The position numbers were made by a program, and so were the translations under genes. A DNA stretch of 64,000 nucleotides from Craspedostauros australis (Eukaryota): the NCBI GenBank assembly GCA_030167865.1, contig JALAGF010001746.1, positions 1 to 64,000 of the forward strand, read 5' to 3'. Shown here piece after piece: positions 28,927 through 49,446 of the stretch (position 1 is the first letter of the stretch; every line of letters begins with the position of its first letter). The notes beneath the pieces are model-generated. The model made no database searches. It saw only the letters and a list, made by a program, of their open reading frames with translations, and was not told the DNA's origin.

Positions 28927-28986
28927 TGAATGGCTGCTTCATTGGTGAAGGGATATCGCAATGAACTTGCTGCACATGTGTGGAAC

Positions 28987-30501
28987 ATGATCGTGGTTGC
29001 AAGACGAAGGTGCCCCCTCCTGCTTCCGATCCTCTTTGCTGCCGAGGTCGCAACATCGGCTCGTCTCGGCAGCGCTTTCGCTCCAGCTCTGCTTCCTTCC
29101 TCTCAGCAATTGGGTCAGGCGCGAATAGCAGCAGCTGGTCGGTTCGTTCATGGTGCATCGATGACAAAGCGCGGGCTCCGATCCTCCACTTCAAACGACG
29201 CCGACAACACGGGCGGCATGAACAAGATAGACAGCATGGATGATGCCAGAAAGGCGAAGAGGAAGTCGCAGACTGATGATGACAACGCGTCAGTGCCAGC
29301 GTCAATGTCAGCGTCAGGATCAGTGCTACCGTCTGAATCTGAATCTCCACAGAAGGAACGGGCAACGCCATTCCGTGCGACCGCCAGCACGGATGCAAGG
29401 TCACCGACGGACGGCGCTGATCTCGGAAACGGCAACATCCTGCCATGGCTGGGGTATGGGACCTACAAGCTGGGAAAGGAAAAGTCCAGGCACTGCACAC
29501 TGGAGGCTCTGCGCTGCGGGTACCGCGCCATCGACACGGCCTTCATCTATGGCGGCGAGACGACGGAGGTTCAGGTGGGTCTCGCCATCCAGGATGCCGT
29601 CAAGGAGGGCATCATCGCCAGCAGGGACGAGGTCTTCCTCACGTCCAAGCACTGGAGGAAGTATCACGGCTACGACAAGACCAAGGAATGCCTGAATCTC
29701 AGCCTCGAGCGTCTCGACACCGACCACATCGATCTCTGGCTCATCCACTGGCCCGGTCCGGCCTACTCCACGATAATGCGCAGGAAGGATGTCCTGCAGG
29801 AGAAGGGACCGTGGCATTACGCAACCACCGCAGAGCAAGATATGCCCAAGAAGCGCAGCGAAACGTGGCGCGCCATGGAAGACGCCGTCAAGGAGGGCAA
29901 GCTCCGAACCATCGGCGTTTCCAACTTCACGGTGGAGCACCTCAAGGAGCTCAAGAAGACCGCCACCATCTGGCCGCCAGCCGTCAACCAGATCGAGCTG
30001 CATCCGCTGTACCGACAGGACGATCTTCTGGCCTACTGCAAGAAGGAGGGCATCGTCGTGCAGGCCTACGCGTCATTGGGAGGACAGGACACCGGCAAGA
30101 ACTTTTGGAAGCTGGTCTACCCGCGTCTGTCGTCTGCCAGAACGGCGCACGTCACCACGAAGCTCTGCAACGCCCCGCCCGTGTTACATCTCGCAGAACA
30201 GGTGAAGCGAACGCCGGCTCAGGTACTGTTGCGATGGGCGCTGGAGAATTCCTGCGCCATCATTCCCAAGACGGTCACACCACAGCGCATGTTGGAGAAT
30301 GCGGCGTTGTTCGATTTTCGATTGTCGCAGGATTCCATGGATGCGCTGCAGAGGGATCTCGATGCCGCCATCGGCATGGCGGAAGCCAAGCAACGCAAGC
30401 AGCAAGCAGGCAAAGGAGACGCGGCAGCGAACAAGGCACCGGTCCTGTCGCGTCGGCTGTGCTGGCGCAAAGATCCCATGCGCATGTTGGATTTCAATTG
30501 A
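28987..30501 (+). CDS. Aldo/keto reductase (AKR) family oxidoreductase, probably plastid-targeted
   Basis: LGYGTY, catalytic tetrad D/Y (IDTAFIY), K (TSK), H (LIHWP), plus IGVSNF, NQIELHP, AQVLLRW and IIPKT. From ATG 28987 the N-terminus has a hydrophobic stretch then GSAFAP and a Ser/Arg-rich segment. An alternative in-frame ATG lies at 28930. Confidence 0.9.
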   Translation: MIVVARRRCPLLLPILFAAEVATSARLGSAFAPALLPSSQQLGQARIAAAGRFVHGASMTKRGLRSSTSNDADNTGGMNKIDSMDDARKAKRKSQTDDDNASVPASMSASGSVLPSESESPQKERATPFRATASTDARSPTDGADLGNGNILPWLGYGTYKLGKEKSRHCTLEALRCGYRAIDTAFIYGGETTEVQVGLAIQDAVKEGIIASRDEVFLTSKHWRKYHGYDKTKECLNLSLERLDTDHIDLWLIHWPGPAYSTIMRRKDVLQEKGPWHYATTAEQDMPKKRSETWRAMEDAVKEGKLRTIGVSNFTVEHLKELKKTATIWPPAVNQIELHPLYRQDDLLAYCKKEGIVVQAYASLGGQDTGKNFWKLVYPRLSSARTAHVTTKLCNAPPVLHLAEQVKRTPAQVLLRWALENSCAIIPKTVTPQRMLENAALFDFRLSQDSMDALQRDLDAAIGMAEAKQRKQQAGKGDAAANKAPVLSRRLCWRKDPMRMLDFN

Positions 30502-31902
30502 TGCGCGAGGTCAGCAAGTGGCAGGGGCGCTTCATGTGGAACAGGTCGGTGGGGGCATGGGGCTGTCGCCTGTGAACCTATTTTTGGTAGAGCAGCAAAC
30601 TTTGAGAGCGTCACTCCTCTGCGGCATGCTTCTCTGCACCTCTGTTATCAGTCGTACGTATGCATGCCGGCTCGATTGTTGAGTCACCATCGCACAATGT
30701 ACCATGCGTGTTCCGGCCTTCGCACGCTCCATTTTCGTCTGATGGCAGGAAAGGCAGAGAAGGATGATGGATGATACGAAGCTTGACGCAGAGCAGCAGG
30801 AGAAATGGTATTTGCATTCAAACTGCTCCGCATCATGCGAAAAGATAAAGCTATTGAAACTCTGCGCGCTTTACCGTAATACTCTCTACTGTACTGCCAC
30901 AACAGATCATGCAATCGACCACGCGCAAGATGACAATCTTACGAAATAGAGTACCTTGAATCACAGCGGGAGTGCGAGGGCATGTGATAATGTGATAGTT
31001 CCGTTTTCGACACGCGTCTGTTGCACATGGGCGTTATTCTCAACGGTCACGACTGGGCAGACAGAAAACCGCGGCGTGGCCATTTAGTGTTTGCGTCTGC
31101 ACACGTCACAGATCTTTGTAGCCGTTGGGCGCGCCTGCGCGGCGCACCTTGCGAGTGTCACCTATTTAGATCTGCACGCAACGCACCAATCTTCTTTCAT
31201 GGAACTCGAATCATACCGAGATCCAGAACGGAACACCGACTTGCTGCCAACACCAGTGAAGGTGGGCGCTGCACACAAGTGAAGTGAACATGGGAGCAAG
31301 GCAGAGAGCAGAACGGCACAGAGAGCGCAGAGCAGAGGAGATGGTGCCAAAGATAACAGGAAGGTGCGGGAAGATTTGTCAGTGCGCGGATCCACCTCAA
31401 GTGGACTTGGGTTGTGCTGCTGAGCAAAGCGCACTGCCTCTGGTACCATACTATCACAGAGTGCGAGCCATCCTGTGTTCATGAGAACCCAGTCAGACAG
31501 ACTCTCCACAAGGTGCTGTAAAGTGCTCCCTTGCTCTGCTCGGAAAGAATTGCGACTGCGAATCACTTCACGCTGCTCCACTTCACTCACAAACACAACG
31601 CAGCACAAACTTCTGAGAAAGAGGCAAAGAGAACGAAACGAGCAGCAAGCCACTTGCTCTTACCACAAACGTCAGAAGGTGACTGTGGAACATCATTGTC
31701 ACTTTCCATCAACTGGCCCATCAACTGGCCCATCAATAGTCCCTACGAGTAGCACAGAAAGAGGGAGAGAGAGAGAGACCAGCTTCTTTCAGCCCAACTG
31801 AGCTCCAATTCCGAGATATCGTGCATTAGAGTACTACGAGCAGTACATCACATCACATCATCATCATAACAATCCGACCCGAGTGAGCGGCCGTGGACAA
31901 AG

Positions 31903-34900
31903 ATGAAGCTCCCATCCACAGCGTTGCTCGCCAGCATCGCGCTCCTGGGCTGCTGCGGCGGATCCGCAAAGGCCAGCTACATCGCTGACGAGAACGATCT
32001 CCGTCTCAAGCAGGCGCAGGAGGTGATCGATTGGGTGCAGACCTTCGACATCGGCTTCTTCAGCTCCAAGCAGAAGATCATGTACGCACCCGAGACTGCC
32101 TTCCACTCCTCCGAAGAGATCGGCATCGGCGTCTTCGCCGCGGACGACATCAAGAAGGGCGAGGTCCTGGCCAGAATCCCATGGGAGGTCCTCATCACGC
32201 CCGATCCCAACGAGATCAACAAGACGAGAGAAGGAAGGAACACCAGGGGCGTCTTGTACTGCAGCACAATCCGCAAGCTCCTCGCGGAGATGCGTCTCGG
32301 CGACAACTCAGCGTACGCCCCATTCACCAGCTTCCTCCGAAGCGCGCCGCATCCGCCCATGCTGCCCAGCGAATTCAGTGACGCTGGAAAGGACCTCTTC
32401 CAAGCGGCCGTGGCTGGGCCCACCCACTTCACCTACATGCCACCGCAGGAACCGACGGCCTGGATCGACGACGATTGGGTCGAGGACTGCGGCGGCGGCA
32501 CCAGCGAGGAGGAGCTGCACGCCGTCGTCATGACCATGACACGCGCCGACGTTCACACCCTCGTTCCCATCTACGATTTCTACAACCACGCCTCCGAAGT
32601 CGACAACGTCGGTGGCAGGGTCTACCACAATGATTACTACGAGCTCAAGGCGGCCTACGACATCGAGAAGGGTCACCAGATCACGGTCGACTACTCCTCT
32701 TGTCCGAGCTGCGATCGAGACGAGCGTCACGGGGCACCAGGTACGTTCCCAGAGCGCTTCTCGAAAATGTCGTCAATTATGTGTTTGCCGTTGCCGTTGC
32801 CATCATCTCGTTGATTGCATGTATGGATAATTGCACTCTACGCGTACTCGACTCTACGCCTACTCCATTGGTTTTGGTCCCATACGCCATCATCAGCTAA
32901 CCGTTTCCCACCATGCGCTCATCTCCGCTCTAACTGCGCCCGCTCCGCCCGACAACAGAAATGTTGAGAGACTTCGGTTTCATCGAAGACTTCCCCCAAA
33001 CATGGCATATCTACTTTGATCACTTCGCGAATCAGCGCATGTCTTTCACCATGGAGATGACCTCCGTCCATCTCGTCACCTCAGAGGATCAGCTCGATGA
33101 GTCTATCGAGCGTAACCCCCTGGACAAGAAGCTGCTGGGTGTCGTCGAGTGGGACAGGGGTGAGGACAGCTACATGACCCACCACCTCACCTCGTGGTAC
33201 CTGCGCCGTTTGGGACGTCTCTACAGCGACGAGCTGCAGAAGGGCGCCGAGGATTGGGCCTTCGCCCGCAACCGCACCGACCTCGTGCCCCAGCACGAAT
33301 GGGACTCCGTCATGAAGTACGTCGAGACCTGCATCTTCGTCATGAGCCACGTCTTCTATGACGCCGAGTTCGAGTACCACGAGGACGCGGCGGATGAGGA
33401 TGAAGACCTCGATAACAAGCCCATCGCCCAGTACCCCTGCTCGCAGGAGGTCAACGCCACCTGCATGCGAAACGAGCTCTACCACGTCCTTTACGAAGAG
33501 CCGGACATGCCCTACGGCCGTGACTTCTCCTGCAACATCCAGCAACTCCTCGACTTCTCCAGGGGACACACCACCATGGACTTCATCCAGACCGAGTATC
33601 AGAAGATCTGGTATTTCAAGCGCTTCCCGGAGGGCAAGCCCCACGACGCCAAGCTCACACAGGAGGACATGGAGCAGGAGACCGACATCTGCATGAAGCT
33701 CGATGAGGAGGTCCAGATCTGCGACAGCTACCGCCCGCACTACCACGAGTACGCCGTCAACTACGGTGCCCGCTATCTCAAGAAGCTCAAGAGGGCCGCC
33801 TTCATCGGTGGCGGAGACTCCATGATCCTCCAGGAACTCCTCAAGTACCCCGATCTGGAGCTCGTCGTCGCGCTGGAGCTGGATCAGACCGTCGTGCGCA
33901 ATGCCTTCAAATGGTTCCACACGGATCCGCACTTCCACGACGATCGTGTGGAATGGTGGTTCGGTGATGCCACCAAGTCCCTCACCCTCTTGCCAAAGGA
34001 GTACATGAACTCCTTCGATTACGTGATGGTGGACGTCTCCGAAACGGGAGCGAGCCTCACCGTCACGCGTCACCTGGACATCTTCAACGCCATGTCCCTC
34101 CTCGTCAAGCCGGATGGTATCATGGTCAAGAACGAACCGTACTTCACGCAGATGGCCAAGTCTTTTGACTACGCTGTCGACGTGCTCTTCTACCACTGCC
34201 CCATGATCTGCGATCAGTCCATGATCATGGGCAGCAACCATATCGACTTCTTCCACCAGGACCTCACCGATCATGGTGTGGAGAATCTGCTGCTCCCCGA
34301 GATCGAGGACTACCCTCACGACTACTTCCTGTGGCGTGATTACAAGAACACCGATCCAAACGAGGATGGGTCTTGCGAGAAGCTTCGAGCTGGTATCGAG
34401 CATCAGAAAGAAGAAGACGATGAAGAGCGCTCGGGCAAGAGCGCAGGACTCGTCATGGTCGTCGAGGTGGAGCATGTCACCATCCCGATGAAGGACGTGG
34501 AGTCTGTCATCATGAGGACGCTGAAGGCGCTGGGATACACATCCATCATCTCCGAGGATAACACCGAGGATGGATTCGATGTGGTCGTCATGACAGCAGA
34601 GGCCTACGTCGTGGCCCGTCGATGGCCGAAGCACAACTACGTTGCGTTGGACATCCACAGCTGGGGTCGCTTCGAAAAGCTGGAGGACACTCGCGAGGCC
34701 TTGGTCAAGGCCTTGGGCAGTGGCAACGACGTGAAGAAGGGATCGGCATCATCGTTCCGCGTGGTGGCGTCCGGCATGTATGGCAACGACTCGTATGAGG
34801 AGGACAGCGAGCTGATCGGGCCCGATCTCACCAAGCACACTCGCAACTGCGACGGCCACGTGAATGAAAATGTGGAGGCTCTGAAGAAGGCAAGGGCGGC

Positions 34901-36119
34901 CGAATCGCCGGCCAGCACCGTCACTGACCAGCCTCCAATCGAGCTCGAGGACATCGTCGATGCCGAATTCGTCAAGACCACGTTGGATGCCATCGTCGAC
35001 AACCTGGCGAACGAGAGCTCCACCGTGCTCGTGTTCTGCGACACCGAGGACAAGCCATGCGAAGCCTCTGCTACCCTGCAGGAACACTCTCGCCTTGCCC
35101 ACGTGGTGACCTTGCACGCATGTGAGAACATCAAGGATATGGAGTTCGTTCGCTACGAGAAGCAAGAAACGGACAAAGCTGCCAGAATCAATGCCCTGCA
35201 CGAATGCCGCGCAGAGCTGGAGCAGCAGATCAAGAAGGTGGTGATTGAGACTCGCAGCATAATTGGCGGTGCAATCTTCGATGCCGACGCCCCGTACGGC
35301 ATGGCCCGAGCGTTCTCCAGCTTCTTCACCTTCCGACGCAACATCTTCCAGGACACCACCATCCAGTACTTCGCTTCGTTCCAACGCGACACATCGAAGG
35401 ATGCCTGGAGGAGAGAGGTCGTCCGTGAGATCCACCGCGTCCTGGAGATAGATCCGCTCATCGTGTCTGAGTTGATCGTGAAGCCAGTGGCGGCACAACG
35501 CCAGGACCCCGGCGCCGCCGTCCACGTTGTGAGCGTGGACGTGGAGGATACCTTCCCACGCATTCGCAGCATCGAAGATGCCATCGCTGACAAGTACAGC
35601 GACAGGCTCGCCGTCTTCCCCACCTACATCGAAGGCGGTGGATTGATGTACACTCACGATTTCAGTCCGATCGAATTCAAGCAGAGCGACTACGATCTGA
35701 GCGCCGAGATCGAACAGTACAAGAAGCAGGTCGCCTTCGGTCGCCAGACTGTCTTCCAGTTCACCCGAGACCAAAGTCGCCGCGGGGCCGACGGAGTGAG
35801 CCCCAACTTAGACTCCATCATGGCCGCCACTCTGGAGTCCACAAACGCCAAGATCGAATCAGCGAAGAGCTACGATAAGATTGGCAAGGGAATGGTCGAG
35901 GTCGTGCGCTTCAAGGAGGGCAACGCGGTGGCTGTTTTCGACGGTGAGAACCACATTACGATCAACCTGTTCCGCTTCGATCAGAGACGATCGCGCGCCG
36001 ATGAGTTCATGACCCGGTTCCTGGCCTCCATGGTGAACGGAGGATGGCGTAAAGAGCTCCGCGATGACATGCCACGCGGCATCAACAGGGTCATCAACTT
36101 CTCCTACGAGCACAAGTAG
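31903..36119 (+). CDS. Secreted fusion: signal peptide + SET (LSMT-like) N-methyltransferase + aminopropyltransferase + two degenerate AdoMetDC-like modules (paralog A, about 1332 aa)
   Basis: Exons 31903-32740 and 32959-36119 with a phase-1 GT..AG intron (32741-32958) giving HGAP|EMLRDFGF. SET motifs: GIGVFAADDIKKGE, PIYDFYNH, DIEKGHQITVDY. Aminopropyltransferase motifs: LDEEVQ, YHEY, FIGGGD, ELDQTVV, GDA, MVDVSE. AdoMetDC-like motif: EAYVVARRWPKHNYVALDIHSWG. Confidence 0.88.
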
Positions 36120-37153
36120 GATGTGACATTTGGAAGTGACAGTGACAGCAACAGCAACAGCAACAGTACACGAGAAATACAATAAAACAAAGATACAATA
36201 TGAAAACAAACTTCCATCGAGCCGAGTCGAGTAGAACAATACTCTCCTCCACACATGGGCACAGAGGGGCGCTTGCAGCAAGGCTGAGCAAGCAGGCAGC
36301 AGCATTGAAAGCAGCGCTATTCCGGTCTTTGCTGGTCCATTCTAATCTTTCGTCGGAGCGAAATGCAGAACGAAAAGTGAAGCGAAAGTGTGAGACAGTG
36401 GGGGCCGCGGTATATTCATAAATTAGCTTAATAATTCGTTGAGTATGTGGAATCGTTGATTGTGAAACACGAGCTGGACTGATCTATTGAAATGGCTTGC
36501 GAAAAGAGAACGTTGTTCCGAATGCAATATAACGCCTATTTAACGTTGTATCCGTTGAACGACTATGTAGTGTCAAAGAGACACGAAATCAGTCGTGATC
36601 ACGGAGCATTGCTCGCGGAATGGCGTGGTGTCACGTCACGTGGTGATTTGCCAATCCCGATGTCTTTGTTGGAGTGGTTGTCGGATCGTTTCCATGTGGC
36701 AAAGTGTGCCGACTTGGCATCTTTGGTGCGCCTTGTTGCTGGCTGTCGAAACGTGCCATGGCGCACATCATCCACACGAAAAGATATCTTCCGTTGTGCC
36801 TCCCGTACTTGGGAACACGGTAACATGAACCCGGGAGTGCGGCAGGAGATGGACAGACCGAGATCGTAGGTGGTAGTTCATGAGAACAACGCGCACTCAT
36901 CATCCATTTGGGCCATCGACAAACATCCGACAATCGAATGAGTGGCACGAAGGACTCCACTCGACCCCACAATACTCGTTTGGACACCGAAGTGCTCACA
37001 CTGCTCTGCGACTACTCTATTTGACGTCTGGCTTCTCCAGATCCTCATCTCTAATATAATACGTACACATTCAAGAGAGCGGCTTTCATCTGCACAGCAC
37101 TCTCACCATCACATCCGAAGCTGCATCGGTATCGGGTGATAGCGACAGGAACG

Positions 37154-40100
37154 ATGGAGGTTCCAACTTTGGGGTGTACGAGAAGATGGGTGCCAGGACC
37201 GGCGCTATGGCTGTCGCTGTCGCTTGCATGGCTGTGCGTGGCCCTCCATCCATCGGCCTGCATTGTGGCTGCAGCAGATGCCAGCTTTGCGAGCGGCGTA
37301 GACAAGACCATCGAAGACAACATCAACGCTCTGATCAGCTGGGTGGAGGATGATGGGTACGGTTACTTCAACCCGAGCCAGGAGATCCGTCCTGCGGGCA
37401 CCAACATGTACAACGACGAGAGCACGTTCGGGTTGGGCGTGTTCGCGAAAGAGGACATACACCCCGGAACGGTGCTTGCTCGCATCTCATTCGATAAAGC
37501 CATCCACGATCCCAAGGATGAGGCATTGGCGGATGACGACGAAGCGGAGTGGAAGAGAAAATCCAATCCCAACATCGAAGTTGACACTCTTCCGTGCAAT
37601 GGGATTAAACAGGTCATGGCGGAGATACGGCTGGGAGATGCCTCCAAATTCGCACCCTTCTTCAAGTATCTCAAATCCATTCCGGCCCCCTTCATCCCCA
37701 GTGCCTGGACACCCGAAGGCAGGGACTTCTTCCAGCGCATGACGACGGGAACGACCATCTTCACCATGCTGCCACCCTTCGAGCCGGTCCATTGGATCGA
37801 GAAGGACTGGCGTCAGAATTGCGACGGCGGCACATCCGATGAAGAGATCTGGTCTCTGCTGTCCTTCATCACGCGCTCCGATACAGACGTCCTCGTCCCC
37901 GTCTATGATCTCTACAATCACCATGACGGCAAGCAGCGTAATGCCAAGGTCAGTATCCTCAACGAAGAAGACGACGATATTGATTATCGCTACAACCCAA
38001 ACACCTCCGACAAGCGCAAGCCCGACGATTACGAAGTCTACGCGTCCAAATTCATCGCCAAGGGAGAACAGATCTTCGTGACCTACGTCGACTGTCCACA
38101 TTGCGAACGCGGCGACTACTACGGCACCCCTGGTGAGTAATATGATTTTGTGCTCTGCTCTGCTCTCTGATTTTGCTCTGCTCTCGCTTGGATTGGTTCA
38201 ATTGTTGGCGATCGCATCATCATCGCATGCATCAATGTACCCACCGCACGAGGTTCGTCCACATCCAAGTTGCTCTTCATGCTCTTCACAATGAATTCTA
38301 TCTCACACCTCTCTTTCTTCACCAACAACGACGACGACGACAACGATCCCTCGAACTGCAATTGGCCTTCTATACTTTATTTGCAATTCCTCATTTCATC
38401 AATCATTGCTGCAGAACTGTTGCGTGACTACGGATTCATCGAAGATTACCCGCAGCAGTGGGCGTTCTTCTACGATGACTTCCGCCGCATGCGGGCCATT
38501 TTGGACATCGACATTGATCCAACCTCCATCTCTGACTCGGACGATAAGTCCAAGGCACCTAAGTACACAGTCGATTGGAACGGTGATGATGTGCGAATAG
38601 GACGCGACTTCCTCAAGATCTACCTGCGTCGCCTGGGACGTCTACGCAGCGATGAAATTGCCCTTGGGCGTGAAGCATGGGCCGTGGCACGCAACACGAC
38701 AACCGTCATCCCGCAGAGGGAATGGGACGTTGTCAAGTCGTACGTCGATGCAGCAATCATTGTGCTGTCGAATGCATTCGACTCCCTCACCGACGACAAG
38801 AAGCTTCCCAAGGACAAGGATCTGTACTACTGCATGACCGAAGTCAACGACATGTGCATGGTGCATCAGCTCTACCACCCGCTCAACGCCGAGAATGATA
38901 TGCCCTACGGTCGTGACTTCTCCTGCGACATCGTATCCCTGCTCGATTTCTCAAAGGGCCACACGACCTTGGACACGATCCACACCGAGTATCAGACCAT
39001 CTGGTATTACAAACGCTTCCCGGAGGGCAAGGACGATGAAGCCGAGCTCACGCAGGAGGACATGGAGCAGGAGACCGACATCTGCATGAAGCTCGATGAG
39101 GAGGTCCAGATCTGCGACAGCTACCGTCCGCACTACCACGAGTACGCAATCAACTATGCTGCCAGGTATTTGAAGGAGGTTAAGCGCGTGGCCTTCATCG
39201 GCGGCGGTGACAACATGATCCTGCAGGAGTTCCTCAAGTACCCCGATCTGGAGCTGGTGGTCGCGCTGGAGCTCGATCAGATCGTCGTGCGCAATTCCTT
39301 CAAGTGGTTCCACACCGAACCCAGCTTCCACGACGACCGCGTGGAGTGGTGGTTCGGCGATGCCACCAAATCCTTGCTGCTCCTGCCCAAGGAGTACATG
39401 AATTCGTTCGATTTGGTGATGGTGGATGTCTCCGAGACAGGTGCCAGCCTCACGGTGACGCGTCACCTTGATATTTTGAATGCCATGGCGTTGCTGGTCA
39501 AGCCAGATGGCATCATGGTCAAGAACGAACCGTACTTCCGACAGCTCTCCCGAGCCTTTGACTATTCCGTGGACATCCACTTCTACGACTGCCCGATGAT
39601 CTGCGAGCAGTCCATGATCATGGGCAGCAACGAGATCGATTTCTACCACGTGGACGACATGGTGGATCATGGTGTCGAGAACCTGCTGCTTCCGGCTCTG
39701 AAGGATTATCCTCATCAGTACCCGCTGTGGAGAGATTACAAGATCAATGATGGAACGAAGGACAAATCCTGCAAGAAGCTCGAGAGGGCAATCGCCGCAC
39801 AGCAAAAGACGGATGGTGTTCGAAGCGGCAAGAGCGAGGGCGTTGTCATGATCGTTGACGTTGAGAACTGCTCGCTGCCGATGGAGAAGGTGGAGGACGC
39901 CATCGTCGAGACGTTGCAGTCGTTGCAGTCGTTGCAGTACACATCCATCGTGAGCGAACACAACGCGGAGACCAGCTTCGAGGTGGTGGTCTTGATGGCG
40001 GAGGGGTACGTGATCGCCCGTCGATGGGCGGAGGAGAAGTACGTGGCATTGGACATACACTTGTGGGGTCGATTCGAGCGCATGGATGCAACCCGTGCCG

Positions 40101-41458
40101 CTCTTGTCAAGGCGCTGGGCAGCGGCAACGACATCAAGGAGGGTTCCGTGTCATCCTTCCGCGTCGTGGCGTCCGGCATGTACGGCAACGATTCCTGGGA
40201 GGAGGACGACAAGCTGATCGGCCCTGATTTGACTACGCACACTCGCGACTGCGACAAGGATTCCACAAAGATGGCGCCATCTCCGACGGCTGCGGAGAGG
40301 AACTTGGACACGGTGGAAGGAATCTTCACAGAAGAGCTGGTCTCCACCGGTGTGAATTCGATCGTCGATGACATGTTCGTCGAGGGATCCATCGCTTTGG
40401 TCTTTTGCGGTCTTTCCGGTGAGCAGTGCCATGCCAAGAAGGCCCTCGAGGAGAACCCCAACGTCGGCCATGTCGTTCCTCTCTACATTTGTTCAGATAT
40501 CGCCGATGCCAAGTTTGGGGAACCCACCAACGGCAAGAAGTTGCACAAGTGCAGGCGGGAGGTGGAAAGCCAGATCAAGGAGATCGTCAGAGAGACCGGG
40601 ATCGCCATTGACGCCGCTTTCCTCGACGGAGACGCGCCGTATGCCATGGCCCGTATTTTCAGCAGCTTCTTCACGTTCCGACGAAGCATATTCCAGGACA
40701 CGGTCATTCACACCCTCGTGTCCATCATGCCCGATTCGCGAGCCGAGACCTGGAGGTTGAATGTCATCGTCGACACGCGCCGCAAGCTGGATATGGACCC
40801 CTTGACTCGTTCGGAGGTGATCGTCAAGCCCAAGGGTTCCACGCGCGATGCTTCCGGGGTCAAATTCAACATCCTCAACGTGGACATGGAGACCACGTTC
40901 CCGAAGGTCCGCAACGTCGAAAAGGCGCTACTTGCCAGGTACGGTGAGGATCTCGAGATTTTCCCAACCGTGCTGGAAGGTGGAGGCCTCATCTACCAGA
41001 ACGAGACGGAATTCCAGCCCATAGAATTCAAGCAGAGCGACTACGACCTCAGCGCCGGGATCAAGCAGTATGAGGAGCAGAAAGCGCTGGGACGTCAGAG
41101 CATCTACCAGCTCGGCCGCGATGATGGCCACCGCGACTCCAGCCCGAACATGGACACCATCCTCCTCGCCGTCCAGGAGTCCATGGGATACACCCTCGAG
41201 TCCTCCATGCTGCACAACGACCTCGGGGATGGCGCCGTGGCCATCGTGCGTTGGAAGGAGGCCCACGTGGTCGGTATCTGGGACGGCCGCGATCACATTA
41301 CCCTGAACCTCTTCCAGTTCGATCAGACGAGGTCCGTGTCCGACCTCTTCATGGGCAGATTCCTGGCGATGGCCGGCACGATATGGGGCAAGCAGCTGCG
41401 AGATGACTTCCCACGCGGTGTGAACAAGGTGATCAACTTTTCGACGGAGCACAAATGA
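37154..41458 (+). CDS. Secreted fusion: signal peptide + SET + aminopropyltransferase + two degenerate AdoMetDC-like modules (paralog B, about 1340 aa)
   Basis: Exons 37154-38132 and 38415-41458 with a phase-1 GTGAG..CAG intron (38133-38414) at the same position as in paralog A (YGTP|ELLRDYGF). Same motif order: GLGVFAKEDI, PVYDLYNH, FIGGGD, EGYVIARRWAEEKYVALDIHLWG, RDDFPRGVNKVINF. Confidence 0.88.
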
Positions 41459-42464
41459 TGACGATAATGAGCATGCAGGTACTCTGCTCTCCTCTCCTCG
41501 TAGAGTGTCATATTATAGGTCCTTTGGTGACATCCTTGGAAACAAAAACAAACACAAAGAAATAAAGACAAGGCATGGCCATAGTCGTTTTTGCAGTTGT
41601 AGCAGTTGTGCTGTGTTGCATGCTTTGCATGGATGGTGGGACGATGGGGGAAGGGATCGGTGTCTGTGCTTGTTTTGGTTGACACATCGCCGTTGATGAC
41701 AAGGAATCATACTGGAGTCGTGCCTAATATTGGACTTTGTAAGTACTTTTTCTTGCTCACCTGGACACCGATACTGTTGCGTGCATGGTTTCTTCCTTTG
41801 GGTTCAACCTTCGAGCATTTGGGTCCATAGGAACGTCTCGTTTTTATCGCAGTCTCCACACTTGAAGGGGGAGAAGAATGGTTGGTCTCTGGAGAAGAGC
41901 AGAGCAGATCAGAGTGAGTGAGTGTGCTACTCTTTCTCTCCTCTGAGAGGAAAGGAGTCTTCGTTGGTTCGTATCCAATTGAGCCAACGGACGCTCGTTC
42001 CTGGGAGAACTTCTGATCCATCGCTGGTTGACGTTGAGGATAAACACATCCATGAACATGAGCGCAACAAGATGCTGCCGACTTGCGGATGCTTTCGGCA
42101 CCTTGGTGTTGTGGGAGAAGAACATTTTTTCGTGATTGTGGGTAGGTGAGTGTGGATGTCTGGTGGAAGAAACTGGCATCTGGCCTCCGATTCTTCAAGG
42201 ACCCAAGATTCACACTCCCATTGGTAGCGGCAGAGTTCTCTCAATAGTACCTCAATTCCTTCAATGTGATTTCTTTTTTGTTTGGAAAGCATGCTGCTCC
42301 CACCAGAACAGAGTAAATGAAAGGGCGTTGCGTCAATGACCTCGTCAGAAGAATGTGAAGCAAGTCACAAGACCGAAACGGATTGCGCCAGGCAAAGCAT
42401 GTTGATGCACCTGTTGGAGGCGGGTGAGTGTGAGTGTGAGAAAGGGTGCGGATACGGTCCTTGC

Positions 42465-42515
<51 letters not shown>
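42465..42515. repeat. (TGT)17 microsatellite
   Basis: Perfect tgt run of 51 bp. Confidence 0.95.
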
Positions 42516-43339
42516 GATGCGAGTGTTGGGAGGGGAGATTGAAGCAGACAATCCCACGAAACCTCCATCCACCACGTCAACCAGCTCGTATCCATGGTAC
42601 TTCGACTCCTTCTGCCCCCTGGTTCGCACATACCCTCTTTGCAGCTCATACGTGGTGCACTTCGCCACGGATCACCAAGACGATCCAAGAAGGAACAGAA
42701 CTGGTAGAAGTTTGAAAAAGTGATGTTAGTGGGACGTGCGGCGATTGTGTTGGGATCGCTGTCTTCTCTCTGTCTCTGGCGCGACTCCGTTGGCGGAATC
42801 GCCATCGTTATCGTTGTTGGCTGTGTCGATGTTGATGTCGCCTCGTATGACGATACTTATGAGCGAAAATGAGTGCAAGTGAAGTTACCGCGTGTGTGGA
42901 TCTCGTCTCATTTTTCTCCCTAACGCACATGAGCGTTCGGCACTGCTGACATACGCAAGAATCGCGCTTCATTGAACGAACCGAAGCGACGAAAGATAGC
43001 AGCCAAAACAAACTGCGCAGCTGAGCAAAATCGAGCACAACGCAGTGTAACACAACGAAGATCGAAGCGATGCTGAGTGGAAAGGTCTCCATGTGATCAT
43101 AACTTGGACGAAGCACACTCATTTCGTTTCGCGTGAAAGGAAGTCAATTGATACGACCACAGTATCATCGTGATCCCCACCATCACAATATTCCATTATC
43201 ATTATCATCATCATCATTATACTCCATCATATCAGTACTCATTCTAGTAAGTGCGATCATCAGCGAAGCCAATCTATCGATCCAGAGTGCTCAATCAAAC
43301 CACTATACTCCACAGCGACCGTACTAGTATCATCCTACC

Positions 43340-45388
43340 ATGCCACCATGCGCCACAACAACGCCATTGGCCATCGCTGAGCCACGGGAGGAACAGAAGG
43401 TCCACCCATCCATCGAGAGCATCCCCAAGGCCATCCAATCCATCTCGAAGCGCCGCCAGGAACTGCATGATCTCTCCAATGCCGAGCTTTGCGTCATCCT
43501 CAAGGAGATCATCGCGCAGATGCAGGACTCCGAGTGGGAGAAGGCCGGTGATTGGTTGAATGAGGAAGCCCGTTTGCTCAACATTGTGAGCGATGGCCAT
43601 GATGACAAGGTCAACGATGACAAAGATCATGACCAGGCCAACGCGACAGATGCTGCAAAGAACCGATACCCGGCCACCACGCACCGCGTTCTCAGTCTCA
43701 CAAGGCAGCTGATGGCGCAGCACATCCTCACGTACTGTACCAACCTCATCAAGTCGCTGGAGTATCAGGACAGCCAGGCGGAGCAGCCGATTGCGGCAAA
43801 GTCGGTGCCCGTTCCGCCGCTGCTCAAATCCAAGAGATTCGTCGCCAACGATGGCAGCGCTCCTGATGATGTCAAGGATGACAGCGCGATGACCGTCTAC
43901 GGTCCAACCGCGTACGACGCAGCACCCGGGCATACCCTCGAGGTCTGGTGCAACGGTGATTCCGTCCAAAAGGCATCGTCTGCACCAGCAACTGGAGAAG
44001 CAGCTGCGAAGACAAGGAGCGAGGCTTCCGTCCAGGACGCCGTCTGCCTCGTACTTGGCGCCGGAAACCAGTCCTTCAATGGCCTCGTCAGCGTGCTGCA
44101 CTGCATCATGTCGCACCGCTACCCCGTCATCCTCAAGCACCATCCGCTGCGCGAGTACCTCCTGGACCCCGTGGCCGTCTTCTTCGAGCCGCTGATGCGA
44201 CGAGGTTACCTGCATCAGATCCCCGATCATGGCATCCACGTCACGCAGCAGTACCTCCTCGCCAACCCGTTGGTGCAGCGCGTCGATCTCATCGGTTCCT
44301 GGAACACGGCCAGGGCCATCGAGAAGACGTTGGCGACCCTGCGCCCGCACCTGTCCCAGCCCGACATCGCGTCGATGATGTGCACGGAGCTGGGCGGCGT
44401 CAACCCGTTCATCGTGACGCCGGCACAGTACACCGATGCGGAACTGCGCACGGCCGCCAAGCTCTTCGTCACATCGCGTCTGTGCAACCGCGGCGCCAAC
44501 TGCCTGTCCAACCAGGTGCTGCTTCTGCCCAAGGAGTGGCCGCAGAAGGAGGCCTTCCGCAAGGTTCTGGACCAGGAGCTGCATGCCGCGATCGTGGATC
44601 CGGCCTACTATCCCGGATGTGGCCAGCGGCAGAAGCAGCTCCTCGATGCCTACAACGAGCATGGCAAGGCCACCATCATCGAAGCCACCACGGTGGTCCC
44701 CGTTTCGTCGGATGCTTTCAACGGCAGCCACGAGCCGAACCTGGTCGTTCTGGAGTGCGGCACGCCAGGCGAGGAGGGGTACAACAACACCGCTCTGCTG
44801 CACGAAGCCTTCAGCTCCACCATGGCGATCGTCGAGCTGCCGGGCGGAACCAGCACGGATGAATACCTCGTGGACACCGTGGTTCCCTTCCTCAACGACA
44901 AATCCAACATCCTGGGAACGCTCGTGGCCGTCGTCGCCCATCCCAAGAGCGTGGACAAGATCCCGGACAAGTTCGTCGCCCAGCTCAAGTACACATCGCT
45001 CTGCGTCAACTCCAGCTCGATCTTCATGTACACGGCCAACGTCTGCTGCGGCGGCAAGTGGGGCGGCCACAGCAGCGACGAGAACAACCCTTACGGATCC
45101 AGCGGACGCGGCGGCGTCGGCGACATCTACGCCTTGCGCAACATCGAGCGCACCGTCCTGTACGGACCGTCCCTCACGGCGACGCCCCTCCTCGATCTCG
45201 CCAAACCCACGCCGCCCATCCTTCTCGATATCCTGCACGCCGTCAGCGTTTCCAAGACGGCGGGTGCGGCGACCATGAAGATCCTTCTCATCCTCATCGT
45301 GGCGCTCATCCATACCATCGTGCCCAATGTCCTTCTCGAAGCCGTCTTCGGGGCGAAGGCCTTGAAGCCGTACGGGGGACCATTTTGA
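43340..45388 (+). CDS. Aldehyde dehydrogenase-like protein (ALDH superfamily) with a hydrophobic C-terminal tail
   Basis: 682-aa single-exon ORF with LVLGAGN (catalytic Asn region), VILKHHP, ELGGVNP (general-base Glu), NRGANCLS (catalytic Cys) and EAFS. Hydrophobic KILLILIVALIHTIVPNVLL near the C-terminus. Confidence 0.85.
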   Translation: MPPCATTTPLAIAEPREEQKVHPSIESIPKAIQSISKRRQELHDLSNAELCVILKEIIAQMQDSEWEKAGDWLNEEARLLNIVSDGHDDKVNDDKDHDQANATDAAKNRYPATTHRVLSLTRQLMAQHILTYCTNLIKSLEYQDSQAEQPIAAKSVPVPPLLKSKRFVANDGSAPDDVKDDSAMTVYGPTAYDAAPGHTLEVWCNGDSVQKASSAPATGEAAAKTRSEASVQDAVCLVLGAGNQSFNGLVSVLHCIMSHRYPVILKHHPLREYLLDPVAVFFEPLMRRGYLHQIPDHGIHVTQQYLLANPLVQRVDLIGSWNTARAIEKTLATLRPHLSQPDIASMMCTELGGVNPFIVTPAQYTDAELRTAAKLFVTSRLCNRGANCLSNQVLLLPKEWPQKEAFRKVLDQELHAAIVDPAYYPGCGQRQKQLLDAYNEHGKATIIEATTVVPVSSDAFNGSHEPNLVVLECGTPGEEGYNNTALLHEAFSSTMAIVELPGGTSTDEYLVDTVVPFLNDKSNILGTLVAVVAHPKSVDKIPDKFVAQLKYTSLCVNSSSIFMYTANVCCGGKWGGHSSDENNPYGSSGRGGVGDIYALRNIERTVLYGPSLTATPLLDLAKPTPPILLDILHAVSVSKTAGAATMKILLILIVALIHTIVPNVLLEAVFGAKALKPYGGPF

Positions 45389-46029
45389 TTTGCAACGTGG
45401 TAGTCTCCGAAGTCCTTGCTGTTGTTCATACGATTATTACTCTCTCTAGATAGATAGAGAGAGAAAAGATGAGTACATTTTATTAGATCAACCAGTCTTT
45501 TGCATACCAATGGACACTGCAGTCCGCTCTTACGGCTTGACTGTGCACATCCTCTCAAGTGTGTGTTGTTGCTGTTTGCCTCATGACGGCAATGTTGTAT
45601 CAGAGGATGATGCAGATGCTATTGACAGATCTCTTTAAAGATTGTCAGAAAACTATGCAAACTCAGTGGTTACGAACACAAACACAAAGCATGAGCGAGT
45701 GTTGTCGCACTGCGAAGGAGGTGATCAAAGAATTGCAGAGTAGTTTACGATTATTAAACAGTTTTGGTTATCATTGAGGTAGTGTGTGTGTGTGTATTCA
45801 TGGACGACGTGCTCTGCTTCTGCTGGATCCCACACAGTCGCAACCGAAGCTGCGTCCATGGATCGTTTGCCCAAAATGGCAATCGATTAAGCCATGGACT
45901 GATGTTGCTGCCGCTGCTGCGGAGTGGTGCAAAAGACCCAGCGTATGCTAGTACCGCACGCCAAGGGAAGTCAATGCCTTGCGTTTGTCATGAGGCAATG
46001 TATGGTATGCTAGTATTCCATTGAAGAGT

Positions 46030-47139
46030 TTAGCTCATGATGCCATCAGAGGTGGTGGCGGCCTTCTTGTTGCGCCACCACTGTTGTGTTTGTGGAAGAG
46101 AGGAAGGAGTGTGAGTTGATCACAAAAGTGAGTTGAGGGGATGAATGAATGGAAGGAAAGCGGGTGTGAGTGGGTGAATGCATGAATGACATCGTCAGAA
46201 CATTTGTCCCAAGCCTGCTCAATCAGACAGGGCAATCTTTCGCATGCGTGTATCTGTACTTACCATGACGTATCCGACGGTGCCAACGATGATGAAGGCA
46301 AAGATGATCCATCCGAAGATGGCTCCGCTGGATCCACCGGTGCTGGCCTGTGGCAGAAGGGCAGTGATCTGCTCGCAGCCTCCGACGTTTGGTCCGTACT
46401 GGCTGACATACTCCATGTTCTCCTCGCACTTGTATCCGGCGGCCATGTAGGTCTCCTCGCACATCTCGCGCATCTCGAGCTCGTAGTTGTCGTTGTACAT
46501 GAGGCAGGTCTGGCACTGGTCGGTGACCATGCTCTCCTCGGAGAATGGAAGGGACCATCCGTTGGAGATCTCGGCGAAGGTGGTCTCGGACTTGACGGTG
46601 CAGATCTCGTTGGTGAAGAGGTCGGTGACGATGCTGATGCCGTCGTCTCCGCAGGTTGGCCCGACGTAGTACACGGCCTGGTTGCCGTTGTTGTTGTTGT
46701 TGTTGCCGTCGTCCTCCTGCTCGACCTCGTACTCGCGGCACTCGGTGTACTCGTCTGGGTTGACGGCGTCGTCCCAGTTCATGTTGTCGCGCTGGTCCTC
46801 GAAGAAGGCCTGGACGTAGGTGTTGAGGCCGACGACCATGTCTCCGTACCCCTCGCTGCAGCCCTCATCGCAGGAGTCGGCTGGGCAGATGCGGACGATG
46901 GCGGCGTTGTACTCGTACTCGCCGTCCTGCGGGTTCACGACGGTCTCTCCGGCCTTGCAGCCCACGAGCTTGAGGGAGTAGTTCACGAGGTAGCCGTAGT
47001 CGCCGTAGTCTGGCTCGTCCTGCTGGTTGTTCTGGTCGAGGCGACGGGCAGAGCTCATGATCTTGGCGGCGTTCTTACCCTTGATGGTCATGGCCGAAGC
47101 CACGGAAAGGAGGGAGGCGGTGAGGAGGGCGAACTTCAT
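46030..47139 (-). CDS. Silicanin-family (Sin1-like) type-I membrane protein (about 308 aa)
   Basis: Exons 47139-46264 and 46080-46030 with a phase-0 GTAAG..CAG intron (46081-46263). Signal peptide MKFALLTASLLSVASA, RXL site (RRL), YSLKLVGC, an acidic N/Q-rich luminal region with 12 Cys, a TM helix (AIFGWIIFAFIIVGTVGYVMWW) and a short tail RNKKAATTSDGIMS. Confidence 0.82.
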
Positions 47140-48960
47140 GATTTAGAATTGCTTTGTTTGTCTGCTGGCTGTGCTGAGGATCGCTTGCTGGATTTGTGAG
47201 AACGGAGAGGTTGCAGCAGAGCAATCTATCGTGAAGTAGGGCATCGGTAGCCACGATGCGCAGTGGAGTCGAGTAGAGCGCTGGTAGAATACCCGTGGAA
47301 CAGAATGGGGGAGCAGTATGTTTCGTGAAGAACTTGCGCATTTGATGGATCTTCTGCGTACTTTGGGATCAACGAAGTTCGCGGTCTCTAATTTTCGAAC
47401 CGTTGGCGTGGATCCGGAGCAGCCAAAACGATTCAGCGACCGCATTGGTCCGTTGAAATGGACGCAACCTGATTACTTAGACGTTCATTGTACTTCCTTG
47501 TCCGCGGAACGTCTCACACATTTCGTAATTAATTTTGTTGCGCACGATCGCCAACATAATTTGTATACAAGATTCAATACACATTTCCTTCTTAATTGCG
47601 TGTGGAAGACACAATACACACTCGCCAAGAAAGCCGACACGGTGCTCGCTGCGTTGAACGTGAGATGGCAATTGCGCGCCGGCAGGCATCGAATTTGCTG
47701 CCACTCCGAATCCGGAGCGTCACATTTTCGGTGTCACCCTTTCTCGTTCTGTTTGATCGCTATCGTGAAATTTGGCTGTGATTCAGAATCATGCTACATT
47801 TCCAAGCTAGACCGTGACATTGCCCGATATTTGAGGCAGTGCGGCATTCAGCCTCCTCGTGCTGCTGTTACGAATACAATAACGCATGGTGAAATTGGAC
47901 AGCGTCTCGGCTTGGGCTGCTCTCCACTACTACTGCCCGTTCCGAATGCACACTCATCCTCTGTTTTACAAGTCTCAACAGCTAAAATCGTTCGTTCAGT
48001 CATCTTCCTCTCTCAACTTCTCCACAACTCCCAGGGTTTGCAGAACGGAGGCTTCTGCGTTGCGATGCTCAGATTGAAATCCTTTCGAATGAAACTCGCA
48101 GCTGCGGCGTGTGTGTGGATGGATGGAAGAGGCAAGGCTATGCACACAGCTCTGCATCATCAAGGCTGGGTCTCTCATCATGACATGTCCGGACAAATGG
48201 AAATCGATGGAAGCTCTCGCGTGTCGGCGGCATGCTGTCTCCCTCTCTTGCTCAGTTGATGCGGGCGAAGATATAGCAAGTCGGACTAGCGTGGACTCGC
48301 GTGATACGGGGCACTTCGAATATGAACAGGAGTGCATTGATCTTCATAGCACGGCAATACATTACATGAAGTATGGCAACTGCAGATTGCAGGTATGATG
48401 GAGTATTGTACGACTATGTATAATGTATTGTGCAGTCTAATTTCTATGATGCCCATGGTCATGCTCAAGAGAGCTTTTGTGGGCGCATCCCTTTTGTCTT
48501 GGGATCAGCAGGCATCAGGAGCGAGCAGCGCATGCGGGATCTGACTGTCACCCCAATCCGGAATTGCCAAAGATCTGCGGGTTCCCAGGACGATGCTGCG
48601 AGACTTCTTCCGCTCTTCGCAAGCACCGAACATGTAGCGTTTTCCCACGTTCGTCCGATCGTCATCCCGGAGGAGACAAACACTACGGGTAGAGCATTAG
48701 TTGGCACAGTAGGTAATGTACCCCCACGAGGAATCCAGTGCTGGATGCACTCATGTCGCATGAGCAATCAGTGCGTATCCATTGGGTTGCGAATGCTGCC
48801 AGTGGAGCATTGGAATGTTTGAATAGTGCGATTGGCAGAGAGAGTTTGAGTATTGCAAAGCGGTAGAGTAGTGGCAAGAGAAGCATTGGATGTGAGTGCT
48901 TTGGATACGTGCACATGAGTCGGGCTCATCCACAGCAATAACACGTGCCAACATGTTCAC

Positions 48961-49446
48961 TCACAATTGCTTGTCGTAGATGCGCTTGGGTATGATCTTG
49001 ATTTTGGCGTGCTCCGCCCTGCGCTTCGGGGAATCCTTTGGTTCGTGCTGTTGCATTGCAGGCTGGAGATGTTGTCGTGGGTGGAGCGAATCGGGTCGAG
49101 TGTTGTGGCCATGCAGACGCGAGGGTGCTTGTTGCGTGGCCTTCGTGACCAACGCCTGCGCACGCTTCCGCTTCCATTGGTCGGAAGCCTCGCACAACTG
49201 CGCATCCATGTGGAGGTCCCCGTTGTGCATCATGTTCTTTATGGTCTTGAGGAAGACGATGTCGTGGAAATCGTGCATGAACTGCGCCTCGACGTGCCTC
49301 CGGATGGCGTCCACAGACGAACGCGACTGCCAGTCGTTCAACTCTTCAATCGCCTTCAGTATTGCTCTTTGATACAGCATGGTGGTGTGCGATGTCGGGG
49401 ATGCCACGTGAGGCTTCGTGGGAGTGTGGACGACGGTGGTACTCAT
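48961..49446 (-). CDS. Small protein with a linker-histone H1/H5 (H15) winged-helix-like domain
   Basis: YQRAILKAIEELNDWQSRSSVDAIRRHVEA...FLKTIKNMMHNGDL matches the H15 pattern (Y..I..AI..L....SS..AI..... L...V..G.L). Start taken at ATG 49446; the ORF is open to 49635. Confidence 0.62.
   Translation of the reverse strand: MSTTVVHTPTKPHVASPTSHTTMLYQRAILKAIEELNDWQSRSSVDAIRRHVEAQFMHDFHDIVFLKTIKNMMHNGDLHMDAQLCEASDQWKRKRAQALVTKATQQAPSRLHGHNTRPDSLHPRQHLQPAMQQHEPKDSPKRRAEHAKIKIIPKRIYDKQL

Follow-up and report, generated by a model that had tools for sequence, protein, structure and literature searches.

Diatoms reportedly carry multi-domain fusion proteins that combine a SET domain and an aminopropyltransferase with a catalytically dead S-adenosylmethionine decarboxylase (AdoMetDC). 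In the available part of their article, Kotzsch et al. (2017, PMC5525289) defined the silicanins by type-1 topology, an RXL motif, an NQ-rich domain of 341 amino acids (aa), 18 conserved Cys residues, an invariant GGQKFAL motif and a BLAST E value below 1e-50 to Sin1 of Thalassiosira pseudonana. They also reported that long-chain polyamines are bound by the recombinant luminal domain of Sin1, which raises silica formation more than twofold. The available text of Brembu et al. (2017, PMC5501833) describes a diatom-restricted SiMat7-like family in four subfamilies, with a signal peptide, an RXL motif, eight conserved Cys residues and a transmembrane (TM) helix, and counts 15 members in Thalassiosira pseudonana and 10 in P. 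tricornutum; another partly available source gives 4-13 silicanin homologues per diatom genome (PMC10328945). As to gene order, about 25% of the Si-responsive genes of P. tricornutum lie in clusters of two to four genes, some of them tandem duplicates, according to the available part of Sapriel et al. (2009, PMC2758714). Here we describe a locus in a stretch of eukaryotic DNA of 64,000 nt (50-63% G+C), hereafter the window, in which two SET/aminopropyltransferase/AdoMetDC-like fusion genes (A and B), an aldehyde dehydrogenase (ALDH)-like gene and a gene for a SiMat7-like/silicanin-family membrane protein lie next to one another. The interval considered, 31903-47139, extends from the ATG of fusion gene A to the ATG of the membrane-protein gene; the first three genes are on the plus strand and the membrane-protein gene is convergent on the minus strand.

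The four neighbouring genes had been recognised in the first-pass annotation, and this part of it was confirmed: three identities are backed by Pfam and that of the fourth gene, which has no Pfam family, by its homologues. Three of the four belong to families tied to silica cell-wall formation, and the annotation was right to connect them with the published ideas on long-chain polyamines and silicanins. However, conserved linkage was lacking in the loci sampled. The most fitting explanation of the arrangement is a single tandem duplication combined with a chance, or at most lineage-specific, adjacency and not a conserved biosilicification module; we put the probability of this reading at roughly 0.65.

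Linkage was examined with an alignment of orthologues of the membrane protein, which was scanned against JGI metagenome contigs and gave 60 loci, most of them transcript-sized and 11 longer than 2.5 kb. In tblastn searches with A, B and the ALDH-like protein, none of the 11 longer environmental diatom contigs carried any of the three beside the orthologous membrane-protein gene. A tblastx comparison of the whole window with the longer contigs gave matches to the membrane-protein gene and to a single HSF fragment, and to nothing else. Furthermore, a Pfam scan of 40 of the 67 open reading frames (ORFs; 170 aa or longer) of the longer loci, the 27 ORFs overlapping the silicanin-like gene itself being left out, gave no SET, Spermine_synth, AdoMet_dc or Aldedh domain. 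The flanking domains on these loci were PfkB/Ham1, PhyH, thioredoxin, sulfotransferase, DUF6824, inositol phosphatase, HSF, STIMATE, HIT and TauD, and the neighbours of the orthologous gene differed between lineages. Because only about 0.64 kb separates the stop codon of the ALDH-like gene (45388) from that of the spliced membrane-protein gene (46030), as against downstream flanks of 1.2-10 kb on the environmental contigs, an ALDH neighbour would have been visible on most of them. None of the lengths given for the longest contigs recurred between the homologue lists of the fusion, ALDH-like and membrane proteins in a crude comparison by eye that covered 120 of the 257 fusion matches. The comparison of microsynteny that the first-pass annotation had proposed, made here on environmental contigs, thus yielded no fusion or ALDH neighbour in about eight contexts. 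Nor were there any 8-10-mers common to the four upstream regions beyond those in random 600-bp controls, a comparison of low power.

The two fusion genes do not add to the clustering independently. A and B were 51% identical over their full length (35% for the SET exon, 56% for the remainder) and formed sisters with a support of 100 in a FastTree tree of 122 sequences. The path length was 0.87 between them, whereas the next nearest sequence was about 2.3 away; the tool warned that long branches meet nearby. Both were at most about 36% identical to any homologue among the matches listed. A and B are the product of one old, lineage-specific tandem duplication, and as sister paralogues they count once in any clustering argument. 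The fusion family is large: 257 homologues were found at E <= 1e-5, many with PF00856, PF01564 and PF02675 in their precomputed architecture, and the sources named among the matches listed were Nitzschia, Cylindrotheca, Pseudo-nitzschia and Bacillariaceae. Among the best 120 of the 257 matches, at least four distinct members came from Nitzschia inconspicua, at least three from Cylindrotheca closterium and at least four from one metagenome-assembled genome (MAG) of Bacillariaceae. These family sizes agree with the caution, already expressed in the first-pass annotation, that both families have several members per genome and that adjacency by chance is possible.

The frequency of such an adjacency was estimated by simulation, with 10-15 SiMat7-like members and 4-8 fusion loci, numbers based on the family sizes above, and an assumed total of 12,000-20,000 genes. 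Chance adjacency within two genes was expected in 0.8-3.8% of genomes for this family pair, and in 13-36% if any of ~170 Si-responsive genes would have counted as a neighbour. The adjacency of this pair is thus uncommon in any one genome, yet a large scan should meet it somewhere.

Several points weigh against the reading as duplication plus chance. The linkage comparison was made from the side of the membrane-protein gene only, and on environmental contigs rather than assembled genomes; the 11 contigs amount to about eight independent contexts, as L012 and L015 repeat each other and likewise L020, L021 and L056; the downstream flanks were confined to 1.2-10 kb; and the contigs had no neighbour at all in common with the window, which weakens the linkage test. 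The signal peptides and the tail anchor of the ALDH-like protein were judged by eye only. A chance of 0.8-3.8% is not large, and to meet the adjacency in one particular genome is somewhat surprising. Moreover, the clusters described in the available part of PMC2758714 indicate that lineage-specific co-regulated neighbourhoods exist in pennate diatoms, and a pairing of fusion enzymes with a silicanin makes biochemical sense because the luminal domain of Sin1 binds polyamines (PMC5525289, available part). The low chance figure, the P. tricornutum clusters and the interaction of Sin1 with polyamines all favour a lineage-specific neighbourhood in which the fusion pair and the SiMat7-like gene, optionally with the ALDH-like gene, would share a chromatin domain and be co-expressed in valve or girdle-band synthesis, and the representation of all four genes in transcript-like contigs of one run (X1) is consistent with it. 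However, that single run cannot rank or correlate the genes, the upstream regions had no words in common at the low power of the comparison, the arrangement of three plus-strand genes and one convergent gene includes no divergent pairing, and the linkage was not seen in other lineages on the sampled contigs; we regard such a neighbourhood as possible but doubtful. In a more specific form, a young co-regulated neighbourhood of this pennate lineage would unite a secretory pair of polyamine-elongating and polyamine-methylating enzymes with a 12-Cys silicanin-family protein, and chains would be built where the luminal domain binds them, which we consider unlikely.

An ancestral module of fusion enzyme, ALDH and silicanin-type gene, selected across diatoms, has the adjacency in this window alone in its favour, and it is very improbable. 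It is largely refuted by the sampled loci, where a fusion or ALDH gene was found in 0/11 cases and neighbours vary by lineage; the long, lineage-specific branch of A and B and the identity of only 30-38% between the ALDH-like protein and other diatom homologues also speak against it. The co-regulated module proposed in the first-pass annotation is thus unsupported, given the unlinked loci, the single duplication behind A and B, an ALDH-like gene with no link and upstream regions that share no words. That annotation had also stated that no physical cluster of these families was described. This holds for the combination of fusion, ALDH and silicanin genes, for which no published description was found and which is not among the example clusters in the available part of PMC2758714; it does not hold for small Si-responsive clusters as such, which are known from the same source. 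One tandem duplication with a chance, or at most lineage-specific, adjacency remains our preferred account of the locus.

The ALDH-like gene had been proposed to handle aminoaldehydes from polyamine turnover. The Aldedh profile (PF00171) matched the ORF at 43328-45388 with an E value of 1.5e-8 (34.1 bits, cutoff 23), but only partially (profile positions 194-295 of 461). The Glu of ELGG (E350), the catalytic pair N387-C388 and a GAGN motif were invariant in 22 sequences, and the product of 43340-45388 is a divergent member of the ALDH superfamily with a catalytic Cys and a general-base Glu. Among 107 homologues, those of diatoms (Odontella, Skeletonema, Cylindrotheca and Stephanodiscus were named) had 560-680 aa and were only 30-38% identical, and the bacterial ones, annotated as aldehyde dehydrogenase family proteins of about 570 aa from Actinomycetota and others, were 25-33% identical. 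The ALDH-like protein thus shows 30-38% identity to all its diatom homologues whereas the neighbouring membrane protein has a relative at 64%; it may be a fast-evolving paralogue. No signal peptide was seen by eye, and the C-terminal tail is hydrophobic; on these features the protein would face the cytosol, away from the lumen expected for A, B and the Cys-rich domain of the membrane protein.

The retention of the catalytic Glu and Cys and the position of the gene 1.9 kb downstream of gene B would fit an enzyme that detoxifies aminoaldehydes and whose function is linked to that of the fusion enzymes. Against this stand the partial Pfam match, the best NCBIfam ALDH models at 14-20 bits versus cutoffs of 500-750, a PDB sequence search that matched no solved ALDH structure at E 1e-3, relatives that form an uncharacterised diatom and bacterial branch, a compartment that would differ from that of the secretory fusion enzymes given the missing signal peptide, and the lack of linkage to the membrane-protein gene on the sampled contigs. 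The aminoaldehyde role therefore found no support, with neither a signal peptide nor a match to an aminoaldehyde dehydrogenase family behind it, and we consider it quite improbable.

The coordinates of all features of the locus are collected in Table 1.

Table 1 Features of the fusion/ALDH-like/membrane-protein locus (positions in the window).
Feature	Position	Strand	Basis
Fusion gene A exon 1, signal-peptide-like N-terminus and SET (~32122-32694)	31903..32740	+	Translation, Pfam SET 3.3e-10, donor g/gtacgt at 32740/32741
Fusion gene A intron, phase 1, GT..AG	32741..32958	+	Sequence reading
Fusion gene A exon 2 including stop codon	32959..36119	+	Pfam, NCBIfam, PDB, AlphaFold model, transcript-like contig 35296-36398
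Fusion gene A exon 2: aminopropyltransferase	~33738-34133	+	
Fusion gene A exon 2: dead AdoMetDC-like domain 1	~34494-34724	+	
Fusion gene A exon 2: predicted Rossmann/spermidine-synthase-like domain 2	~34950-35633	+	
Fusion gene A exon 2: predicted AdoMetDC-like domain 2	~35727-36095	+	
Fusion gene B exon 1, signal-peptide-like N-terminus and SET	37154..38132	+	Translation, Pfam SET 5.8e-8, donor g/gtgagt
Fusion gene B intron, phase and position as in A	38133..38414	+	Sequence reading
Fusion gene B exon 2: aminopropyltransferase, dead AdoMetDC-like domain (EG for ES), C-terminal module as in A	38415..41458	+	Pfam, NCBIfam, transcript-like contig 41155-41578
Stretch between gene B and the ALDH-like gene with transcript-like contigs, no convincing ORF	41702..42454	.	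Contig matches, ORF list, Pfam null
ALDH-superfamily gene, single exon, 682 aa	43340..45388	+	Pfam Aldedh 1.5e-8, 107 homologues, contig 44917-45486
SiMat7-like/silicanin-family gene exon 1, coding for residues 1-292 with signal peptide, ARRL, luminal domain of 12 Cys, N6 run and TM helix	46264..47139	-	Translation, homologues, P0008 match
SiMat7-like gene intron, GT..AG on the minus strand, 183 bp	46081..46263	-	Skipped in transcript contig
SiMat7-like gene exon 2: 16 cytosolic residues (WWRNKK...) and stop	46030..46080	-	Spliced reading, family consensus WWRKKK...DG

The two fusions of a signal peptide, a SET domain, an aminopropyltransferase and a "pseudo" AdoMetDC that the first-pass annotation had seen were borne out by Pfam, by alignments and, for the signal peptide, by eye, and one intron was added to each gene. 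The spliced models encode 1332 aa (A) and 1340 aa (B). Their phase-1 GT..AG introns occupy an identical position, exon 1 stopping one base into a codon (donors GTACGT in A and GTGAGT in B) and exon 2 beginning after ...CAG. Both introns were read from the genomic letters, and the transcript contigs cross neither; the junction of A reads ...GAP-E-MLRDFGF, which fits the family consensus YGTxEIFRDYGF. The N-termini are hydrophobic, with small residues ahead of the likely cleavage site by eye. For A and B, respectively, exon 1 matched SET (PF00856) with E values of 3.3e-10 and 5.8e-8 (40.8 and 33.5 bits, cutoff 22.4), and exon 2 matched Spermine_synth (PF01564) with 1.1e-14 and 2.8e-13 (54.9 and 50.3 bits, cutoff 22.9) and AdoMet_dc (PF02675) with 2.1e-6 and 2.3e-5 (28.5 and 25.1 bits, cutoff 25). 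The SET exon gave no PDB sequence match; what we take to be the NH and terminal Tyr motifs of SET domains were picked out by eye.

The transferase domain of A was aligned with spermidine synthases of the PDB (best E 2.6e-9), and GGGDS, ELD, GDA and VDVSE were kept; in comparison with the P. falciparum spermidine synthase, GGGD, E-x-D, GDA and D-x-S-E were retained. NCBIfam gave an aminopropyltransferase match of 6.1e-19, yet under the equivalog cutoffs. In the adjoining AdoMetDC-like domain 1, the self-cleaving Ser of the ES site was replaced by Ala in A, as seen in an alignment to the Aquifex and Thermotoga proenzymes, and by Gly in B, as seen in the translation. Two nearby His residues and the Cys were replaced as well, and EG was the consensus at this site in 37 members of the fusion family. 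Since these residues are replaced, AdoMetDC-like domain 1 cannot make the pyruvoyl cofactor, and the "pseudo" label proved apt.

The C-terminal ~440 residues of both fusions (34791-36116 and 40172-41455, both on the plus strand) had no Pfam match. Indeed, even at an E value of 10 Pfam gave nothing credible for the C-terminal 442 residues, nor for residues 1-247 of exon 2. An AlphaFold model of the C-terminal 442 residues of A, built on 37 sequences, had a mean pLDDT of 81.4. In VIA-align, residues 313-435 of the model superposed on a bacterial AdoMetDC with a Z score of 12.3 (root-mean-square deviation (rmsd) 2.9 A, 110 residues) and on the non-catalytic N-domain of human spermine synthase with a Z score of 12.1 (rmsd 2.5 A, 103 residues). 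Residues 54-281 adopted a class-I methyltransferase fold, for which spermidine synthases, RlmJ and CbiT were tied at Z 8-9, a tie that in the model points to a common fold only. The second AdoMetDC-like domain likewise has EG at the corresponding site by eye, and five Cys residues (C20, C83, C90, C111 and C139) are invariant in the first 140 residues of the C-terminal region. The model suggests that the transferase/decarboxylase-like module is internally duplicated; the fusion proteins look like a signal peptide and a SET domain followed by two rounds of a transferase fold and an AdoMetDC-like fold.

The model of the membrane-protein gene was revised. The spliced coding sequence ends at 46030 and not at the in-frame stop at 46219, and the product has 308 aa. 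Its spliced C-terminus, ...GYVM followed by WWRNKKAATTSDGIMS, fits the family consensus, and the whole product is 100% identical, over 292 + 16 residues, to the transcriptome-derived 308-aa protein P0008. By eye it has type-1 topology, with a signal peptide, ARRL at residues 31-34, one C-terminal TM helix and a short basic tail. There were 92 homologues, all diatom-type, including 64% identity in a Stauroneis transcriptome and 43-48% in Bacillariaceae MAGs; one came from a Tiarina transcriptome, which is named in the available parts of the silicanin literature too (PMC5525289, PMC10328945). The neighbours of the protein in the protein atlas were all Bacillariophyta clusters. All 12 Cys residues were invariant across 38 family members, and 11 Cys columns were common to distant 18-Cys relatives with NQ-rich inserts. 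BLASTP against P0097 gave a full-length match of 1e-34, and that against P0099 gave two segments of 4e-11 and 7e-11; the window protein lacks the 6-Cys insertions of both P0097 and P0099. In length, number of Cys residues, RRL and NQ content P0099 agrees with what has been published for Sin1, but it has no GGQKFAL.

Asn and Gln made up 12% of the window protein, with one N6 run and one QNNQQ. GGQKFAL was absent from it and from 92 of 92 homologues; before the TM helix the family has GG-K-[VI]-F-G-W, and the window protein GGSSGAIFGW. These features fit membership of the SiMat7-like/silicanin family in the broad sense, and by its sequence the protein appears to represent a different subfamily that is neither Sin1-type nor orthologous to Sin1. 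The "silicanin-type" label of the first-pass annotation can be kept in the broad SiMat7-like sense (signal peptide, RRL, 12 Cys and TM helix). In the strict sense it fails: the protein has the topology and the RXL motif, but it falls outside the silicanins because it lacks the 18 Cys residues, the long NQ domain and GGQKFAL. On two environmental contigs, SiMat7-like genes occur as tandem pairs (L019, 4841-5755 and 6922-7830; L053, 5026-5976 and 6739-7741), in which the paralogue is 30-33% identical to the window protein and lies 1-2 kb upstream; the window has a single copy.

Transcript evidence was taken from run X1, which had been labelled as RNA by guess. One X1 contig joins 46264 to 46080 and omits 183 bases with the ends CT..AC (GT..AG on the minus strand), and because of this spliced joint X1 is likely cDNA. 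Contigs without mismatches extended over the 3' end of A at 35296-36398, that of B at 41155-41578 and that of the ALDH-like gene at 44917-45486, as well as over most of the SiMat7-like gene across its intron (45764-47013); the gaps over most of A, B and the ALDH-like gene are uninformative. The four genes are real and separately transcribed.

Some further contigs of this run concern the surroundings. The contig-covered stretch between gene B and the ALDH-like gene, in which Pfam found nothing, ends at a long trinucleotide repeat (~42455-42523) and may be a long 3' untranslated region, a non-coding RNA or a small unannotated gene. A second spliced joint, at 48796-48964 on the minus strand (169 bases, GT..AG on that strand), was found in a well-covered contig and belongs to a gene with a weak linker-histone match at 48964-49680. 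X1 contigs also carry up to 255 letters before 37203 and 45069 that match nowhere in 30000-49000. Extra introns were considered at both points. That at 37203 was rejected, as the loose letters end in a local GCTGTCGCTGT repeat and an assembly jump is likelier; the loose end at 45069 is inside the ALDH-like ORF and has no explanation.

The rest of the window was ordinary by Pfam, with a dual-specificity phosphatase, Nup192, two HSFs, a leucine-rich repeat protein, an aldo-keto reductase, the linker-histone-like gene and MORN proteins. The aldo/keto reductase gene (28930-30498, plus strand, Pfam 2.9e-50) is directly upstream of fusion gene A, and the flanking of the fusion pair by two carbonyl-handling enzymes, this one and the ALDH-like protein, is probably a coincidence. 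HSF-type DNA-binding genes occur in the window at 15903-16571 and 22100-24460 (both on the plus strand), and another is present on the environmental contig L021 (218-778, minus strand), 9.5 kb from the orthologous membrane-protein gene. HSFs are strongly expanded in diatoms, and their presence both in the window and on L021 is therefore probably due to chance. Three MORN-repeat genes lie inside 11 kb (51277-54666, minus; 60098-60736, plus; 61064-61726, minus).

As to function, the fusion enzymes would enter the endoplasmic reticulum and secretory route via the predicted signal peptide. Their aminopropyltransferase domain, with the motifs for decarboxylated S-adenosylmethionine and amine kept, may add aminopropyl units to polyamine chains or protein lysines, and the SET domain may N-methylate the same kinds of substrate. 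The two AdoMetDC-like domains, presumed to have no pyruvoyl group, might have a structural or dimerising role, as such a domain has in human spermine synthase. The 12-Cys membrane protein would be a type-I protein whose probable destination is the silica deposition vesicle, where the Cys-rich domain would face the lumen. The ALDH-like protein, of the diatom/bacterial ALDH branch, would be cytosolic or tail-anchored, and there is no reason to connect it with the other genes.

Each of the genes adds a new member to a known diatom family, and the present value of the locus is descriptive: it gives corrected gene models, a transferase/AdoMetDC-like module that appears duplicated, two AdoMetDC-like domains that are both predicted to be non-catalytic, and a membrane protein placed clearly outside Sin1 proper. 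If the genes were co-regulated, they would offer a compact handle on polyamine modification and on membrane proteins of the silica deposition vesicle, two poorly connected parts of silica formation, and would single out this 12-Cys subfamily of silicanins as a candidate partner for the fusion enzymes. A young neighbourhood of secretory fusion enzymes and the 12-Cys protein, if true, would be the first physical link between template chemistry and the membrane of the silica deposition vesicle.

In comparison with known systems, the group of genes resembles the Si-responsive clusters of P. tricornutum, which in the available part of PMC2758714 are likewise small neighbouring groups that include tandem duplicates and have a link to silicon; those clusters were defined by co-expression, whereas the group in the window is known from its sequence and its combination is absent among the examples given there. 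The membrane protein shares with Sin1 (SiMat7) of Thalassiosira pseudonana and with the SiMat7-like family a signal peptide, an RXL motif (ARRL), a Cys-rich luminal domain, a C-terminal TM helix and a short basic tail, and the GG-K-x-F-G-W of its family before the TM helix resembles the GGQKFAL of Sin1. Unlike Sin1, it has 308 and not 426 aa, 12 and not 18 conserved Cys residues, an Asn plus Gln content of 12% in place of a 341-aa NQ-rich domain, and no GGQKFAL. The ALDH-like protein keeps GAGN, the Glu of ELGG and the N-C pair of the uncharacterised bacterial family proteins of ~570 aa and of its diatom homologues, and differs from both in an insertion close to the N-terminus that is acidic and about 45 residues long.

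Fusions A and B have the same domain set and order as the diatom fusions are said to have, with a dead AdoMetDC-like domain and a secretory N-terminus, but they stand on a long branch of their own, and in the fold model they possess a second Rossmann and AdoMetDC-like module. As in human spermine synthase (PDB 3c6k), an aminopropyltransferase is joined to an apparently non-catalytic AdoMetDC-like domain. Unlike in that enzyme, the AdoMetDC-like domains of the fusions appear to come after the transferases and to occur twice, together with a SET domain and a predicted secretory signal.

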